In this document: piece after piece, positions 8,167 through 55,955 of the stretch
How positions within the stretch are numbered: the stretch's first letter is position 1
Layout: each line of letters begins with the position of its first letter
Origin: a virus
Lineage: Duplodnaviria; Caudoviricetes
DNA length: 64,000 nucleotides
Strand: one strand, 5' to 3'
Virus record (IMG/VR): IMGVR_UViG_3300021387_001337
Coordinates: 6,483-70,482 of that record
Made by a program: the position numbers and the translations under genes
The notes under the pieces: generated by a model
What the model was told of the DNA's origin: nothing
The model's database searches: none
Seen by the model: only the letters and a program-made list of their open reading frames with translations

Positions 8167-8205
8167 GGCATTGTTTGAAATGCCTCTTAATAGTTTCTAA
8201 CTTTG
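8167..8205 (+). promoter_or_regulatory. Bacteroidota promoter with extended upstream motif
   Basis: TTTG 8174-8177, 20 nt spacer, TAACTTTG 8198-8205; GGCATTGTTT shared with 14957. Confidence 0.75.
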
Positions 8206-51009: not shown

Positions 51010-52295
51010 TACTTAATAGTTTTAAAGATCATATTTTGTGCATCATACTCAGTAAAGAAAGGCAAGTCATAAGGAATGGCTGGATTAAGAGTATTAGCTA
51101 CCCAATTGGTAAATAGGTTTACTATGACTGAACCAATCATACAAGCAAGATAGGTGGTCTGCTTGAGTGAACACTGAGTGGCATCTGCCTCTGCATCAGT
51201 GAAGAGATACTTATGCTGATATTCACTGAGAGCCCATTCGTTATCTCCTGTAATACAAAATACCTGAAGAGTATCTATTGACAATCTGCCATCCAACAGC
51301 AAGCACTTGTATCTTTCCTCATCAGGCTTACTATTTACATGTTCTAACCATTTACTAAAGAAAACTCTTCTAGCTGTCATATTGTCAAAGCCACAAATCA
51401 TAATATCACCAGCCTCATAGTTTTGTGTAAACTTATCTTTAATGGCATAGATACTCCTCATGGTAGTATAGCTACGTATCATATCAGCCATAGCATCTAC
51501 TTTTGCTTTACCTATATCTTCTATACAGTAAAGCTGTCCTGACATGTTAGCTTGTTCTACTATATCATCATCATACATGAAGAGGGCTTCAGGATTCATA
51601 CGGGCTAACTGAAGGACAGTCCAAGAACCAATACCCCCACAACCTGCAAGAATAATACGGGCCTTCTGAATTGCATTATACCATTCAGTGCCTGAAAATC
51701 TGGAGGTAGCGTCATTTATCAGTAGGGTAGAAGAGTTGGGAGCTAGCAGAAGTTCTGTTATAGAAGGCTCTTGCTGTTCTGCTACATCAAATGCCTCCAT
51801 ATCATCCTGAGATACTTCTTCATCAGGATTTTCATTAACACCCTGAACACCCTGATTAGTTCCCTCATGGATAACAGGAACATCTATAACTTCTCCATTT
51901 GGCAAATGAAAGTGTATATCATGAGGTTCCACTCCAGATTCAAGATGCATCCCCATATTAACAGGGGTCACACTTCTAGATTCTATCAGTTCATCCCAGT
52001 CTCTGTCTTCTTCTGCATCAAGATCCCTGCCTTCTCCACTATTCTCATTATACTCGTCAGTATTCTCTCCTTCTTCCTCTTCCTCAACCTCTTCTGCTTC
52101 ATCATACTCTGGCTCTTGGAAACCATTGTCTGCAAGAATGTCATTGAAATCATCAAGAGGAATATTAGAAGATGGAGATTCTCCCTGATGTTGCTGTGAT
52201 ATAACAGATACTGTATCAGAGCTTGCAGGAACAGTTATTTCCCTATTTCCCTCACTAATACCCAGAGAATTCAACCAATCATCTAGATTATTCAT
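51009..52295 (-). CDS. E1-like ThiF/MoeB adenylating enzyme with acidic N-terminal extension
   Basis: GCGGIG, YDDDIVEQANMSGQ, KAKV, CGFDNMTAR, LDGR; candidate catalytic Cys in ATQCSLKQT. Confidence 0.9.
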   Translation of the reverse strand: MNNLDDWLNSLGISEGNREITVPASSDTVSVISQQHQGESPSSNIPLDDFNDILADNGFQEPEYDEAEEVEEEEEGENTDEYNENSGEGRDLDAEEDRDWDELIESRSVTPVNMGMHLESGVEPHDIHFHLPNGEVIDVPVIHEGTNQGVQGVNENPDEEVSQDDMEAFDVAEQQEPSITELLLAPNSSTLLINDATSRFSGTEWYNAIQKARIILAGCGGIGSWTVLQLARMNPEALFMYDDDIVEQANMSGQLYCIEDIGKAKVDAMADMIRSYTTMRSIYAIKDKFTQNYEAGDIMICGFDNMTARRVFFSKWLEHVNSKPDEERYKCLLLDGRLSIDTLQVFCITGDNEWALSEYQHKYLFTDAEADATQCSLKQTTYLACMIGSVIVNLFTNWVANTLNPAIPYDLPFFTEYDAQNMIFKTIK

Positions 52296-53601
52296 AAATG
52301 TAACGCATTAAAACTTCTTTATAATCATCCATATAAACATTTACACCATCAGGAGCATACTGATATAGTTCAGTATATATAGCAGAGGCAACTTTACTCT
52401 GAATTAACTCCCAGTCGTCAATAATTTCTGAAGGAATGTCATCATCATCAATCAAATATTGATTTGTCATAAACTCTACTATAAACTCCTTCCACTCATT
52501 AAACTGAGAAGATTCATTGCCATCAGGTCCAAATATTTCCCCATACTTCTTATTCATCCATCGGTTTATCCATTGTTTCAGGTCTATGTTATCACTTACT
52601 ATAAGGGAGCAAGTAACCATTTGACAGACTAACTTATGAATAATAGTTGGATCTGGTTCCCATTTAGAAGTATCTATCTTACCCATTTCCTCCTCAGAGA
52701 AGAGTGTAGGCTCTTGATTAAATGTTTCTTTAGTTTCCGCAGCTTTCTTTTCATTCTGCCAGTCACGGAAGGAATAGTCCTCATCAAAATCCCTAAGTGC
52801 TGGATTAATTATCTTAGTACCATTAGGAATCCAAGGACTTTTGCTATTGTTAGAAGTGTTAACAGTAGGAGTTACAGGAGTTACTACAGCCTTTTTCTTC
52901 TTAGCCTCAATCTCATCAAATCTTGTATCAAGATAGGCCAAAGGATTGTCTACCTTCTCTACTTGAATATCCAGCATAAAGTACTCAATAACTTCTTTAT
53001 CAATTATCTGAGTACTTTCAGACATAGTATCTTCTCCAGTTTTGATAGTCCCTTCTCCAAAGAACTCATAACTTGTGCCAAGAGATTTAGTTACTACTTC
53101 AGACTTGGATTGAATCTTTCTTGTTAAAGCAGCTACATAAGTACCTCTGGTATCTACTACAAGTGATACAAAGCAGTTAGTATCATTACCTTCACTCCTT
53201 ATAGTATTAAAGTCTGTCCCACTTATAAACGCACCTAGTTGGTGATGTGAATGCACCAAGCCTATATCACAACCAAAGAGATCAATATTATCAGCAATAT
53301 ATCCAACCACACTTTCATCCATCTTAAAGTCAGTGAAAGTGCCAGAGCCTAAATCCATAGGGAATATGTCCTGACAGTGAATCTCTAAGTCATCTTGCTT
53401 AAAACTGCCAGTATGATTATAGAATAATACTCCAGACCATTCAGTAGATGGAAACTTGCGGATAAGATATCTGATTTTTTCTTCTACATTGCGAGGTACA
53501 AAGAGTTTATAGGTAGTAGACGCTTTGATGAGTGGGGGCAGGGAGGGCTGTTGCTGAAGAGCTGGAGCTAGCATCCTGCTGGTGTTGTCTTGTATATTCA
53601 T
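52288..53601 (-). CDS. JAB/JAMM metallo-isopeptidase
   Basis: TEWSG...HSHHQLGAFISGTD is an exact E...HxH-x7-S-x2-D motif. Confidence 0.9.
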   Translation of the reverse strand: MNIQDNTSRMLAPALQQQPSLPPLIKASTTYKLFVPRNVEEKIRYLIRKFPSTEWSGVLFYNHTGSFKQDDLEIHCQDIFPMDLGSGTFTDFKMDESVVGYIADNIDLFGCDIGLVHSHHQLGAFISGTDFNTIRSEGNDTNCFVSLVVDTRGTYVAALTRKIQSKSEVVTKSLGTSYEFFGEGTIKTGEDTMSESTQIIDKEVIEYFMLDIQVEKVDNPLAYLDTRFDEIEAKKKKAVVTPVTPTVNTSNNSKSPWIPNGTKIINPALRDFDEDYSFRDWQNEKKAAETKETFNQEPTLFSEEEMGKIDTSKWEPDPTIIHKLVCQMVTCSLIVSDNIDLKQWINRWMNKKYGEIFGPDGNESSQFNEWKEFIVEFMTNQYLIDDDDIPSEIIDDWELIQSKVASAIYTELYQYAPDGVNVYMDDYKEVLMRYIYE

Positions 53602-55894
53602 TTGTATAATGATAATTTATGATTTTAAGAATGTTATTCAATATATACATGGAGAGACTATGACTGAGCACAATACTCTCCTGAGGAGTGAATTCAGTAG
53701 AACCGCTGATTTTCAAAGTGACATCATTACCCTTGAAGGTGCATACTTTCTTGCCTATATAGTCTTCCAACCTCAAGTTGTCCAGACTTCTGGAACCATT
53801 AGGATCAAAGAACTTGCCTCCAGCTACTATAGCACGATTAATAATTTGCCTATCGAACATTCTAGAAACAAGACTTTTCTCTACATAGTATTTATTAATC
53901 CAGTCTATAAAAGCATTACTAACATCAAGAATATATTCATAATATGACATACCAACTATAAAATGATCCTGCTGATAACTAATTGCTAGATGTCCATTCT
54001 TTAGGTAATATTGAATGAATTTCTGAAGGCCTGCCCTAGTGAGGGTATGCTCAACTTGATTTAGTATATTACCTGCTTCACACTCATTAAATCTATTATA
54101 GTCCCTCAGATTTGAATTAATATTGACTTCCTCAAGATGTCTGTAAGGCACCCCACTAAGAGATTCTACAGTAACATACCTAGATAGTTCTTCACAAAAA
54201 AGCATCCATTTAATTTCATCAAAGCCCTCGGAGAAAGCACTTTGCAGACTATGAATGGTATCTTTGATGGGCCCTGTACCTAAGCATGGGTCTTGAAAAA
54301 CTGTCAAATCATCCTTCGGAATACTACAAATATGAGACATTTTGTTATCACTAAGGCTCTTTATCCTTAGTATCTTGTTTTTATATACTTACTGTATCTG
54401 TTATATATGTGGTATAACAATCTTTTGTTTATACTTTTACAAAAAATTTAGGAATTATGAAAAAAGTACAATTAAAAGATTTTGATTCTCAAATTGTCAA
54501 ATTGAAGACAGACGGTCTTAGTTATGAAGAAATTGCTAGTATTTTACATTTAAAGAAAAATTCAGTTGTAGCCTATATAAAAAGGCTTTATCCAGAACTC
54601 AAGACTTTAAATATGATTAGAGGCAATACTTCTTATTTCCATAATATAGATAGTTATGCCAAAGCCTATTTACTAGGTTTTATAGCTGCTGATGGGGCTA
54701 TAGTTAAGCAACGCAACACTACATATTTAACAATAACTATTAACTATGAAGATAAATCTGTTCTTGAATTTTTACAATCGGAACTACAAGATCATAGAAA
54801 ATTAACAGAAATCATAAAAGCATCTTCTTTTGATGCTAATAAAAAGATTCACCATATTCGTTTTTGTATAGGTTCATCTGAGATAGCCGAAGATTTACAA
54901 AACATTGGTATAACTCCAAATAAAAGCTTAACTATGGGTAACATTATTACTAATATACCCTTGAACTATAGAGATGCTTTTATTATTGGTTATTTTGATG
55001 GTGATGGAAGTGTTAGTAGAATACAACATTCTCCTAATAATAGGAGTTTAATCATACAGATAAGGGGAACATTCTCCTTTTTAGAAGGGATTTCCAATCA
55101 TCTATGTATTCCAACTTCTTTTATTAAACAATATGATTCAATATCACAATTAAATATAACAAATAAGAAGTATATATCCAGATTTTTCCAATGTTATGCA
55201 AACTTACCTTTTTACTTTAAAAGGAAATATGATAAGTTTGATAATTGGATTTGTCCAGATAAAAGGTATAAACAAGTTCAGACTATATCATCATCTGTAG
55301 CATAAAACTACAGAGCTGGGCACTCGTGTCACTATTATATTCTGCAATTAGCAGTTTCAAGTGTTAGTCGTTGAACCTTCCAAAGGTTTTTGCACCTAAG
55401 GCTTGGCTGCTGATTGTCTGCTTTTTCAGATTTTCCAGCAATTCACCCAGTTTAAACTGCACTCTTAGTTAATGCATATAATCACAAACCCACTGTTCTA
55501 GGGTGTAAGTTGATCTATTGAGAGTAAAACCTCTATACTCTACAGGAATCATGCCTTTGGCATCAAGTGTTATTTTTGCATACAAGTCATATATTAATAT
55601 AGACCTATCATTTTCATTAGTTACCTTGACTGTAGGCCAATACACTAAGATAAAAGGATGGATGCCTGCATAACTTCTGGCAACACCATTGAATGTTCTG
55701 CCATCTGCTTCATAACCACTACCATCCTCTCTCATAGGAATCTCAGCAACAGCAAAGGATTCAGCTATAGTATCATCATCTGGAAGACCTTGAAGGTCAA
55801 CAAACCCCTCTCCAAAGTAATTTTGGAATACCTCATAGACATTATAGACATCAGTAAAAGCCTTATGCCTGAAATCATTGATTGTGTAAAACAT
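53507..55894 (-). CDS. Prokaryotic E2 (UBC-fold)-like protein, spliced: exon 1 55472-55894 plus exon 2 53507-54337 (417 aa)
   Basis: Joining gives DYMH|SHICSIPKDDLTVFQDPCLG, an E2-type HxH...C-L-G active site; the frame is preserved exactly. Confidence 0.8.
54408..54439 (+). promoter_or_regulatory. Candidate internal promoter for the antisense endonuclease
   Basis: TGTG-N20-TACTTTTA, 17 nt before the ATG; one mismatch in each element. Confidence 0.4.
54457..55305 (+). CDS. Double-motif LAGLIDADG homing endonuclease, antisense to the host intron
   Basis: YLLGFIAADG and FIIGYFDGDG; N-terminal HTH-like LSYEEIASILHLKKNSV; very AT-rich. Confidence 0.92.
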   Translation: MKKVQLKDFDSQIVKLKTDGLSYEEIASILHLKKNSVVAYIKRLYPELKTLNMIRGNTSYFHNIDSYAKAYLLGFIAADGAIVKQRNTTYLTITINYEDKSVLEFLQSELQDHRKLTEIIKASSFDANKKIHHIRFCIGSSEIAEDLQNIGITPNKSLTMGNIITNIPLNYRDAFIIGYFDGDGSVSRIQHSPNNRSLIIQIRGTFSFLEGISNHLCIPTSFIKQYDSISQLNITNKKYISRFFQCYANLPFYFKRKYDKFDNWICPDKRYKQVQTISSSVA

Positions 55895-55926: not shown

Positions 55927-55955
55927 TAGGGCAGGATAACTTAATACCCTGCCCA
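55927..55955 (-). terminator. Hairpin/attenuator between the Ubl and E2 genes
   Basis: Minus strand reads ATGGGCAGGGTA-TTAAGT-TATCCTGCCCTAT then TATTTT. Confidence 0.6.

Follow-up and report, generated by a model that had tools for sequence, protein, structure and literature searches.

The analysis of a 64,000-nt stretch of DNA (hereafter, the window) from a crAss-like gut phage revealed a predicted self-splicing group I intron on the minus strand, which harbors within its P9 loop a LAGLIDADG endonuclease gene encoded on the opposite strand and running into the catalytic core of the ribozyme. In our opinion, the whole set of data is very probably explained by a mobile group I intron bearing an inverted, self-promoted LAGLIDADG gene in the P9 loop and relocated from a JAB gene. 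The positions of the features are reported in the following table.

Features of the intron and of the split gene (positions in the window)
Feature	Position	Strand	Basis or remarks
Exon 1 of the 417-aa gene	55472..55894	-	ORF list; C-terminal end ...EQWVCDYMH
Group I intron, 1134 nt	54338..55471	-	Rfam match, covariation (8 homologous introns), exon joining
Internal guide sequence	55458..55467	-	P1 covariation; P10 by eye
Catalytic core	55264..55450	-	P3-P8, J8/7; Rfam and covariation
Dual-use segment	55264..55305	both	Plus: last 13 endonuclease codons and stop; minus: P9-5', P7-3', J8/7, P8-3', P8 loop
P9 5' strand CUUGUUU	55270..55276	-	Paired to AAACAAG (54380-54374)
LAGLIDADG homing endonuclease gene, 282 aa	54457..55305	+	Pfam, PHROG, dN/dS, fold
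Degenerate Bacteroidota-type promoter candidate	54409..54439	+	Position-homologous to the exact motif of the relatives
3'-terminal hairpin CUAAGG-AUAAAGAG-CCUUAG	54351..54370	-	Compensated stems in relatives
Exon 2 of the 417-aa gene	53507..54337	-	N-terminal SHICSIPKDD...

The split gene, labelled E2 in the preliminary description, codes for a protein of 417 aa, which retrieved no match from either Pfam or PHROG, and is interrupted by the intron at YMH|SH. The first codon of the intron is an in-frame UAA and its last base is the omega-G at 54338, which gives an in-frame YMH|SH junction; this exon joining agrees with the uninterrupted homologues of the relatives, where the corresponding residues are Y(M/T/L/A)HSH. 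At the 5' splice site (CAU|UAA, guide sequence GUGCA) the last base of exon 1, U55472, is paired with a G in P1, and this U·G pair (29:40) is invariant in 8/8 sequences. Among the contigs of the sequencing runs compared, no RNA contig joining the two exons was seen, and in the four runs compared the gene split in the window never occurred without the intron.

As regards the ribozyme, the search with the Rfam model RF00028 recognized the intron core on the minus strand (55495-55264, 69.7 bits, E 1.3e-15, with a gathering score of 50) and retrieved nothing from the plus strand; the covariance-model check proposed in a preliminary description of this DNA thus pointed to the minus strand only. Moreover, in the alignment of eight homologous introns 94% of the cells are paired, and changes on both sides were counted for 18 pairs, compared with 8.3±1.8 in shuffled alignments (0/500 shuffles as high). 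The ribozyme is therefore encoded by the minus strand, and covariation backs P1, P3-P6, P8, P9, and the 3' hairpin. P3 (55450-55446 with 55320-55316) is followed by P4-P6; P7 is formed by 55369-55365 with 55285-55281, P8 by 55314-55308 with 55300-55294, and J8/7 corresponds to 55293-55286. The core also has a P7.1/P7.2-like insert, and the presence of hairpins between P7 and P3' suggests an IA-like subgroup. P1 is formed by GUGCA (55462-55458) of the internal guide sequence and the exon UGCAU, and P10 by the adjoining UAAGA (55467-55463) and UCU..A of exon 2. P1 covaries among the relatives (AUGCAU/GUGCAU, AUCCAU/GUGGAU, and GGUCAU/GUGACC), and P10 of the window carries a compensatory change with respect to the introns at the JAB site, the sequences having been read by eye.

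The preliminary description placed the endonuclease gene between P7 and a 3' hairpin (CTAAGG...CCTTAG, 54370-54351). The hairpin was found exactly there, and the location of the gene can be refined, being the P9 loop, since the two P9 strands pair around the gene and close the loop that contains it. Both P9 strands are kept in all the relatives, with a compensatory change (CUUGUC/GGACAAG) in the ORF-less intron L003. The 3' hairpin is followed by a conserved GAUAACA (54349-54343), and in the relatives it is represented by five different stems, each fully compensated and with the loop always being GAUAAAGA.

The 282-aa protein consists of an N-terminal HTH and of two LAGLIDADG motifs (GFIAADG and GYFDGDG). 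It matches Pfam LAGLIDADG_3 (PF14528; E 8.9e-11) and phrog_4645, whereas the search of the PDB by sequence gave a match to the HTH part only. Both catalytic acidic residues are present, and D181, D183, and G184 are invariant in the protein alignment. The opposite polarity of the gene and of the intron, already claimed in the preliminary description, is confirmed by this Pfam match on the plus strand, by the Rfam core restricted to the minus strand, and by the neighbouring genes, all of them on the minus strand. The AF2 model (pLDDT 70) contains the alpha-beta-beta-alpha-beta-beta-alpha LAGLIDADG fold twice, and Foldseek assigned to it a probability of 1.00 with I-AniI, bI3, E-DreI, I-SceI, and I-OnuI; the protein is thus predicted to be a monomeric, double-motif LAGLIDADG homing endonuclease. 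The dN/dS values of the ORF, calculated outside the overlap with the core, range from 0.12 to 0.35 (from 0.21 to 0.35 between the window and its relatives), and the ORF is under purifying selection. Furthermore, contigs of other runs with 90-99% identity retain the ORF region. No "mirror" open frame exists on the intron strand opposite to the endonuclease, the three frames having 27-32 stops.

The last 12-14 codons of the endonuclease gene are the complement of P9-5', P7-3', J8/7, and P8-3'. In particular, QVQTISSSVA*, whose overlap with the core had been noticed in the preliminary description, is encoded by the exact complement of P9-5' (55276-55270), P7-3' (UAGUC, 55285-55281), J8/7 (55293-55286), and P8-3' (55300-55294), and the TAA stop codon (55303-55305) falls within the P8 loop; in total, the ORF covers 36-42 nt of the core. 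In the AF2 model, residues 266-282 have a pLDDT lower than 50 and no secondary structure, and the overlapping tail is predicted to be disordered. A 22-nt motif of the core was found in 17 loci, 7/17 of which have an antisense-endonuclease sequence, either complete or cut by the end of the locus; the motif is identical in introns without this endonuclease.

Concerning the expression of the gene, the absence of other plus-strand genes nearby implies that the endonuclease needs its own transcript, as had been proposed, and in five relatives a single promoter motif lies directly upstream of it. The near-consensus promoter of the preliminary description, in turn, was not recovered: a sigma-70 scan gave nothing upstream of the ORF, the total count of the scan being equal to the shuffled expectation, and only a degenerate Bacteroidota-type box was found. 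The Bacteroidota sigma-A consensus is TTTG at -33 and TAnnTTTG at -7 (PMC7366714). The candidate of the window consists of GTG (54409-54411), 20 nt, and TACTTTTA (54432-54439), and ends 18 nt before the ATG; its box is off consensus at two key positions, and neither the exact -7 TAnnTTTG nor the upstream TTG is present. The exact TTG-N20-TAnnTTTG is present in five independent relatives (L002, L021, L022, L023, and L024), where each locus of 3.7-6.7 kb has a single copy, lying 19-34 nt ahead of the endonuclease start; the -7 box of the Fpv1 candidate is TACTTTTG. The same exact motif occurs within the window ahead of other genes, at 8175 and 15893.

Since the promoter of the window deviates from the consensus, and no change restoring it at the two deviating positions was found in the related contigs of other runs, the endonuclease of the window may be expressed weakly or not at all. 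The RNA contigs, from which no strand can be read, are neutral on expression: the region is represented in a single RNA library, run X19, by two contigs of 151 nt that lie on the ORF and on the core, respectively, and two RNA runs of the source sample contain next to none of the window's sequence words. As for the end of the transcript, a scan of the plus strand from the stop codon (55305) to 56800 revealed no terminator-like site, and inspection by eye of the complements of P8, P7.1, P6, and P5 in the window and relatives revealed no stem followed by a U-run. The lack of a terminator-like site makes read-through over the core plausible.

The phylogenetic distribution of the element was analyzed using the 22-nt core motif and the protein alignment, which retrieved the relatives from IMG/VR; a search of IMG/VR with the single endonuclease protein did not retrieve any. 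The homologous Fpv1 intron was likewise undetected by Rfam at E<=0.01 and was detected by an nhmmer profile built from the intron alignment. In seven IMG/VR contigs and in 22 records of Flavobacterium psychrophilum phages (the Fpv1 group) the endonuclease is likewise antisense and enters the core in an identical frame (…KQVQTISS…*); thus, the search for the same orientation in related phages, one of the checks that had been suggested, gave a positive answer. By tblastn and nhmmer, endonuclease and intron core are on opposite strands in L020-L025, L028, L029, and Fpv1. In the Fpv1 group the intron (1021 nt) is located in the JAB gene, next to the gene split in the window. Intron-less alleles are harbored by FpV4 and Fpv3, which are exactly 1021 nt shorter and have flanks 98.9% identical; the junction of FpV4 (WYVGH|IHSHN) is that predicted from Fpv1 by the P1 rules, and the exon-2 differences between Fpv1 and FpV4 are clustered beside the insertion site, which, together with the presence or absence of the intron, hints only indirectly at cleavage of the intron-less allele. 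In L003 and L005 the endonuclease is reduced to a remnant (HSYDKYRQVQTISSPV*), L028 has a 53-aa remnant, and P9 variants without endonuclease occur in other gut metagenomes, including contigs of run X2. The family shows every stage of the homing cycle, i.e., intron-less, intron with endonuclease, intron with a remnant, and endonuclease deleted. As for the site, that of the window (ATGCAT|TCTCAT) shares 11/12 central bases with the JAB site (ATGCAT|TCACAT), and it is empty in 7/7 homologues of the relatives.

On the whole, we can depict the following scenario. A monomeric double-motif LAGLIDADG gene would have settled in inverted orientation inside the P9 loop of a mobile intron, where it would be transcribed from its own host-type promoter in the 3' part of the intron, canonical in the relatives and apparently weakened in the window. 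Translation would head toward the ribozyme and end at the first available stop, provided by the freely variable P8 loop; since the ORF would simply run to that stop, the tail (...QVQTISS) would be a disordered by-product, its sequence being frozen by the ribozyme constraints on J8/7 and P7 rather than by protein function. The inversion would keep the intron RNA free of ribosomes, and the in-frame UAA opening the intron would halt those coming from exon 1. The price would be that the two transcripts converge, the endonuclease mRNA being complementary to about 0.85 kb of the intron; the likeliest effect of sense/antisense pairing would be a low endonuclease expression, an effect on splicing being only possible. 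The intron family would usually reside at GL(M/I)H|SH of the JAB gene, and in the lineage of this phage the intron would have moved to the look-alike ATGCAT|TCTCAT (YMH|SH) of the adjacent gene in the same operon, the P1/P10 guide sequence being partly re-adapted to the new site. Both DNA cleavage and self-splicing by this family are predicted from sequence.

Other readings of the same data can be considered. The possibility that the layout is due to an assembly inversion, or that the ORF is a chance one, has a practically negligible probability: the same orientation and overlap frame recur in the 22 records of isolated phages and in seven independent metagenome contigs, the promoter region is joined to the ORF, and the ORF end to the core, by contigs assembled in other studies, and the ORF is under purifying selection. 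The inversion, named in the preliminary description as a source of error, is effectively refuted by the isolated phages and independent contigs. The protein might also act mainly as a maturase for its own intron, having lost the DNA endonuclease function, in agreement with bI3, a maturase, and I-AniI, a bifunctional enzyme, being among the best fold matches; however, a similarity of this level (TM about 0.5, 13-14% identity) is that of the LAGLIDADG fold in general, the two catalytic acidic residues are retained, and the existence of ORF-less members makes the protein apparently dispensable for splicing, so that we consider this very improbable. A decay of the endonuclease of the window, with the intron fixed at the new site, the promoter degraded, and the intact ORF left as a relic, is possible, though we would not favor it. 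The window has GTG-N20-TACTTTTA while keeping the exact motif at 8175 and 15893, and decay is common in the family (L003, L005, L028, and the contigs of run X2); on the other hand, the ORF is full-length with both catalytic Asp motifs, its dN/dS with the relatives is 0.21-0.35, and the contigs at 90-99% identity from other runs retain the ORF region. Such a decay in the window is compatible with the mobile, inverted intron being the best explanation for the whole family.

The antisense overlap could also have a regulatory role, as suggested in the preliminary description, in that a convergent endonuclease transcript extending over P8-P1 would pair with the pre-mRNA, block its folding, and tune the splicing of a putative ubiquitin-like conjugation operon. 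The lack of terminator-like plus-strand sites between 55305 and 56800, the coverage of 36-42 nt of the core by the ORF itself, and the promoter kept in the relatives are in line with this idea, which we nevertheless regard as unlikely: the window's promoter is degenerate, the overlap is more simply explained by an ORF running to the first available stop, and introns with no ORF or with a remnant (L003, L005, and L028) are maintained in the same genes although the antisense gene is missing, which indicates that the host needs no antisense regulation. In a phage-infected bacterium transcription and translation occur in one compartment. More doubtful still is a reciprocal switch, in which transcription of the endonuclease by the host RNA polymerase would proceed over the complement of P8-P1 and briefly block the splicing of the JAB or E2-like gene, and the later, strong transcription of the operon would silence the endonuclease through a duplex; if true, the timing of a ubiquitin-like conjugation pathway of the phage would be set by a selfish element in a compartment-less cell.

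How to express a nuclease gene borne by an intron without wrecking the ribozyme is a classic problem which, to our knowledge, has been studied almost only in T4 sense ORFs and in eukaryotic nucleolar antisense ORFs. Sense ORFs overlapping the core are known from several phage introns, T4 td/I-TevI among them (PMC3984707, PMC3073962). As in our case, the homing endonuclease gene of these introns lies in a peripheral loop with the ORF entering the core, and translation conflicts with ribozyme folding; however, the sense ORF is translated on the intron RNA, whereas in the window the conflict would concern transcription and the formation of an RNA duplex. Among the annotated intron cores, the nearest one (73% identity over 214 nt) is found in the dUTPase gene of crAssphage (Carjivirus communis). 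This intron, too, belongs to a phage of Bacteroidota, and its endonuclease ORF (KP06_gp35) overlaps the core, ending beside the same GUCUGA, but KP06_gp35 is an HNH endonuclease in sense orientation and upstream of the core.

Antisense His-Cys box genes are known from nuclear rDNA introns, such as Dir.S956-2/I-DirII of Didymium iridis and Dsq.L2066/I-DsqI of Diderma squamulosum (PMC9548176, PMC3073962). They share with the window an endonuclease gene that is encoded by the opposite strand within a peripheral helix (P9.2 in Dsq.L2066), and they express it from a promoter of its own; the antisense RNA is recognised there as a possible source of interference with the host transcript, against which the nucleolus/nucleoplasm separation has been invoked. 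They differ in being eukaryotic, with a Pol II promoter, polyadenylation, and spliceosomal introns, whereas the enzyme of the window is a LAGLIDADG one, whose coding region reaches P7, J8/7, and P8. The preliminary description, which considered antisense cases as mainly eukaryotic, missed a phage precedent: according to passages of Pope et al. 2013 (PMC3706429), a backwards endonuclease gene in a phage group I intron is already known from mycobacteriophage LittleE, whose major capsid gene harbors an intron with gp14, its splicing having been verified by RT-PCR. In LittleE, gp14 carries an HNH annotation and the host gene is a capsid gene of an actinophage; in the passages retrieved, the orientation is given only in a figure legend, and no core overlap, promoter, or comparative series is described (PMC3706429).

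The family analyzed in this work represents a bacterial case in which coding on the opposite strand reaches the region of highest conservation in the catalytic core and the endonuclease has a recognisable host-type promoter candidate inside the intron. Moreover, phages with the intron (Fpv1 and FpV21) and without it (FpV4 and Fpv3) share one Flavobacterium psychrophilum host strain, and therefore the expression of the endonuclease, splicing, antisense effects, and homing are all accessible to bench work. The comparison also documents a probable jump of the intron from one gene to another within an operon, at a common MHSH-coding sequence. Lastly, in the records of the Fpv1 group the JAB gene is annotated as two "hypothetical proteins" flanking an "endonuclease", an annotation that the present data correct.

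The minus strand of the window at 55495-55264 matches the Rfam group I intron model (69.7 bits, E 1.3e-15) and the plus strand gives no match to it, in agreement with the preliminary description, which had placed the intron on the minus strand. Between 17 kb and the window end, every large ORF lies on the minus strand except the 282-aa ORF at 54457-55305 (+). The ORFs flanking the intron are two halves of one gene, since related phages have unbroken homologues with ...Y(M/T/L/A)HSH... at that point; with splice points after U55472 and after G54338 the product is a 417-aa protein containing ...DYMH|SHICS..., and therefore the intron, whose first codon is an in-frame UAA, has the boundaries listed in the table. 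The 417-aa gene has no Pfam or PHROG match and contains the conserved pattern YxHSH...PC(L/T)G; its exon 1 is separated from the upstream 251-aa gene by a strong terminator-like hairpin (55929-55954, minus strand; 10-bp stem with six G-C pairs, U-rich tail).

The tested structure, completed by hand, comprised P1, P3, P4, P5, P6, P7, a hairpin pair between P7 and P3', and P8, and was evaluated on an alignment (A1) covering 230 nt at the 5' end of eight homologous introns, six of them from IMG/VR contigs and the other two from the window and Flavobacterium phage Fpv1. Standard pairs occupy 94% of cells versus 85% in shuffles, both-side changes affect 18 pairs versus 8.3±1.8 (0 of 500 shuffles reach 18), and pairing falls to 31-47% when partners are slid by 1-3 columns. 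The exon-P1 pairing covaries (AUGCAU/GUGCAU, AUCCAU/GUGGAU, GGUCAU/GUGACC; UGCAU/GUGCA in the window), the U·G pair in P1 being invariant. P9 closes the 0.9-kb insert; the 3' hairpin has five different stems among relatives, each fully compensated, and precedes GAUAACA, which a few bases separate from the omega-G.

Coordinates of the intron, its structural elements and the associated ORFs in the window
Feature	Position	Strand	Details
Group I intron	55471-54338	-	1134 nt, from exon joining
Flanking ORF, first half of split gene	55469-55894	-	ORF list
Flanking ORF, second half of split gene	53507-54340	-	ORF list
Antisense endonuclease ORF	54457-55305	+	282 aa, ORF list
P7-3' (UAGUC)	55285-55281	-	structure
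P9	CUUGUUU 55276-55270 with AAACAAG 54380-54374	-	pairing 3' of P7-3'
3' hairpin	54370-54351	-	loop GAUAAAGA(G/A)

The antisense ORF represents a genuine gene under purifying selection, with dN/dS of 0.12-0.35 in all informative pairs (pairwise, overlap left out). It matches Pfam LAGLIDADG_3 and Hom_end, with an HTH at the N-terminus, and PHROG 4645 'endonuclease', and keeps the acidic residues in both LAGLIDADG motifs. Its AlphaFold2 model (mean pLDDT 70) matches the monomeric LAGLIDADG enzymes I-AniI, bI3 maturase, E-DreI, I-SceI and I-OnuI with a Foldseek probability of 1.00. The G+C content of the gene (28% versus 37.5% in the window and 37% in the flanking exons) fits a foreign origin. 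Opposite the gene, the intron strand has no open 'mirror' frame.

The ORF runs towards the core, and the complement of P9-5', the UGAA spacer, P7-3', J8/7 and P8-3' encodes its final codons (QVQTISSSVA and stop), the TAA at 55303-55305 lying within the P8 loop; the overlap between antisense endonuclease and ribozyme core proposed earlier is thus real. The C-terminal frame is the same in every relative (...KQVQTISS and 2-3 variable residues; ...KQGQTISSPQELP in contig L023), and the variable residues are the positions of the covarying P8 stem. The 22-nt motif TGATGATATAGTCTGAACTTGT is identical across 17 IMG/VR loci, seven of which carry antisense-endonuclease sequence (three of them ending at the locus edge), the others being ORF-less or harboring different sense LAGLIDADG ORFs whose ...GDDIV terminus coincides with the UGA of GUCUGA. 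In the crAssphage dUTPase intron the core is 73% identical, and an HNH ORF in sense orientation stops at the same place. In the AlphaFold2 model the final helix stops at residue 265, and residues 266-282 have pLDDT < 50 and no secondary structure. The motif in other introns, together with the crAssphage core and the disordered model tail, indicates that the tail sequence is dictated by the ribozyme. Related introns with sense LAGLIDADG ORFs ending in ...GDDIV occur in G+C-richer phages (IMG/VR loci L009, L010, L018, L019, L012 and L006), several of which have 2-4 separate intron-core matches per locus; this suggests multiple introns in one gene cluster.

The search for the same orientation in related phages was successful: intact antisense endonuclease genes adjoin the core in seven IMG/VR contigs (loci L007/L021, L016/L020, L008/L024, L013/L022, L023, L014/L025 and L011/L029) and in 22 Flavobacterium psychrophilum phage records (the Fpv1 group). 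In all of them the intron breaks the JAB/MPN gene inside the HSH motif, the metagenomic contigs showing the site GL(M/I)H|SH and Fpv1 the site GH|IHSH. The family bears the signatures of mobility, all stages of the homing cycle being represented. In FpV4, Fpv3 and FpV4-1.x precisely the 1021 nt of the intron are missing, and the flanks are 98.9% identical; the junction expected from P1 is confirmed by FpV4, whose sequence is WYVGHIHSHNTM.... Over the initial 45 nt of exon 2, Fpv1 and FpV4 disagree at many, mostly synonymous, positions, as a co-conversion tract would look. Loci L003 and L005 have 300-nt ORF-less introns retaining the remnant HSYDKYRQVQTISSPV and stop, and L028 a 53-aa endonuclease remnant. 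P9 variants devoid of the endonuclease occur as well: in DNA contigs from a further gut metagenome, position 54370 or 54385 is linked to 55274 or 55267 through 18-23 unrelated letters.

The annotation of the Fpv1-group records divides the JAB/MPN gene, which is intact in FpV4 (410 aa), into two hypothetical proteins flanking an 'endonuclease' (gp56 and gp54 around gp55 in NC_031914.1). Fpv1 has a second, ORF-less intron of the same family (about 330 nt; NC_031914.1 74121-74449, between gp65 and gp64), splitting another minus-strand gene also annotated as two hypothetical proteins. Loci L025 (IMGVR_UViG_3300013936_000025) and L029 hold two LAGLIDADG genes in one intron, a 203-aa sense ORF between P7 and P3' and the antisense endonuclease in P9 (-647..-36 and -13..+1051, intron-sense, relative to the core motif).

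The window intron occupies an ectopic site. The window-type host gene is uninterrupted in 7/7 relatives examined, L008 carrying TTATATGCATTCTCAT, identical to the window junction, and no intron interrupts the JAB site of the window itself, GTGCAT|TCACAT. Of the 12 central bases, 11 are common to the window site ATGCAT|TCTCAT and the L007 JAB site ATGCAT|TCACAT, because both genes encode MHSH there. By eye, the P10 strand UGUGA of JAB introns pairs with UCACA, and UAAGA in the window pairs with UCU.A, with one compensatory change and one mismatch left. The intron could have moved after the endonuclease cut a look-alike site, or by reverse splicing into the co-transcribed neighbour. In contigs from two other studies the core lies beside a diverged version of this exon 1, so the arrangement is not peculiar to this assembly. 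The (M/V)HSH motifs of the JAB gene (52288-53601, minus) and the split gene (53507-55894, minus) are encoded by nearly the same DNA.

With no other plus-strand gene nearby, the endonuclease has to be served by a promoter of its own. The elements of Bacteroidota sigma-A promoters are TAnnTTTG at -7 and TTTG around -33 (PMC7366714). Counting both strands, L002 (Fpv1), L021, L022, L023 and L024 each have a single TTG-N20-TAnnTTTG, located 19-34 nt upstream of the endonuclease start, which is strong comparative evidence for a putative dedicated promoter inside the 3' part of the intron in these relatives. The 64-kb window has only four exact motifs, at about 8175 (+), 15893 (+), 6899 (-) and 15580 (-), no fewer than three of which closely precede gene starts; their presence points to a Bacteroidota host. 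The near-consensus promoter of the preliminary description was not recovered: the homologous position reads GTG-N20-TACTTTTA, a sigma-70 scan found nothing there, and related contigs of other runs show no restoring change at the deviating positions. The endonuclease may thus be weakly expressed in the window.

The scan revealed no terminator-like site on the plus strand downstream of the stop codon, and transcription could plausibly continue across the complement of the core. Such an antisense RNA might tune splicing; we consider this unlikely, as ORF-less members persist in the same genes, which implies a host independent of antisense splicing control. Inversion would instead uncouple endonuclease translation from ribozyme folding, at the price of convergent transcription and a long sense/antisense duplex, and the tail would be a by-product of the ORF running into the core. 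As a whole, this reading of the antisense endonuclease element appears highly probable to us.

Antisense endonuclease genes are known from nuclear rDNA introns (I-DirII, I-DsqI; PMC3073962, PMC9548176), and one phage case, mycobacteriophage LittleE, is documented in the available text of PMC3706429; the terms 'antisense', 'opposite' and 'orientation' do not occur in that of a 2014 review of bacterial group I introns (PMC3984707). The lineage described here (crAss-like and Fipvunavirus phages of Bacteroidota) and the host genes are new, as are the coding on the opposite strand across J8/7-P7-P8, the canonical promoter motif within the intron of relatives and the culturable intron-plus/intron-less pair. 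JAB homologues are found throughout Crassvirales.
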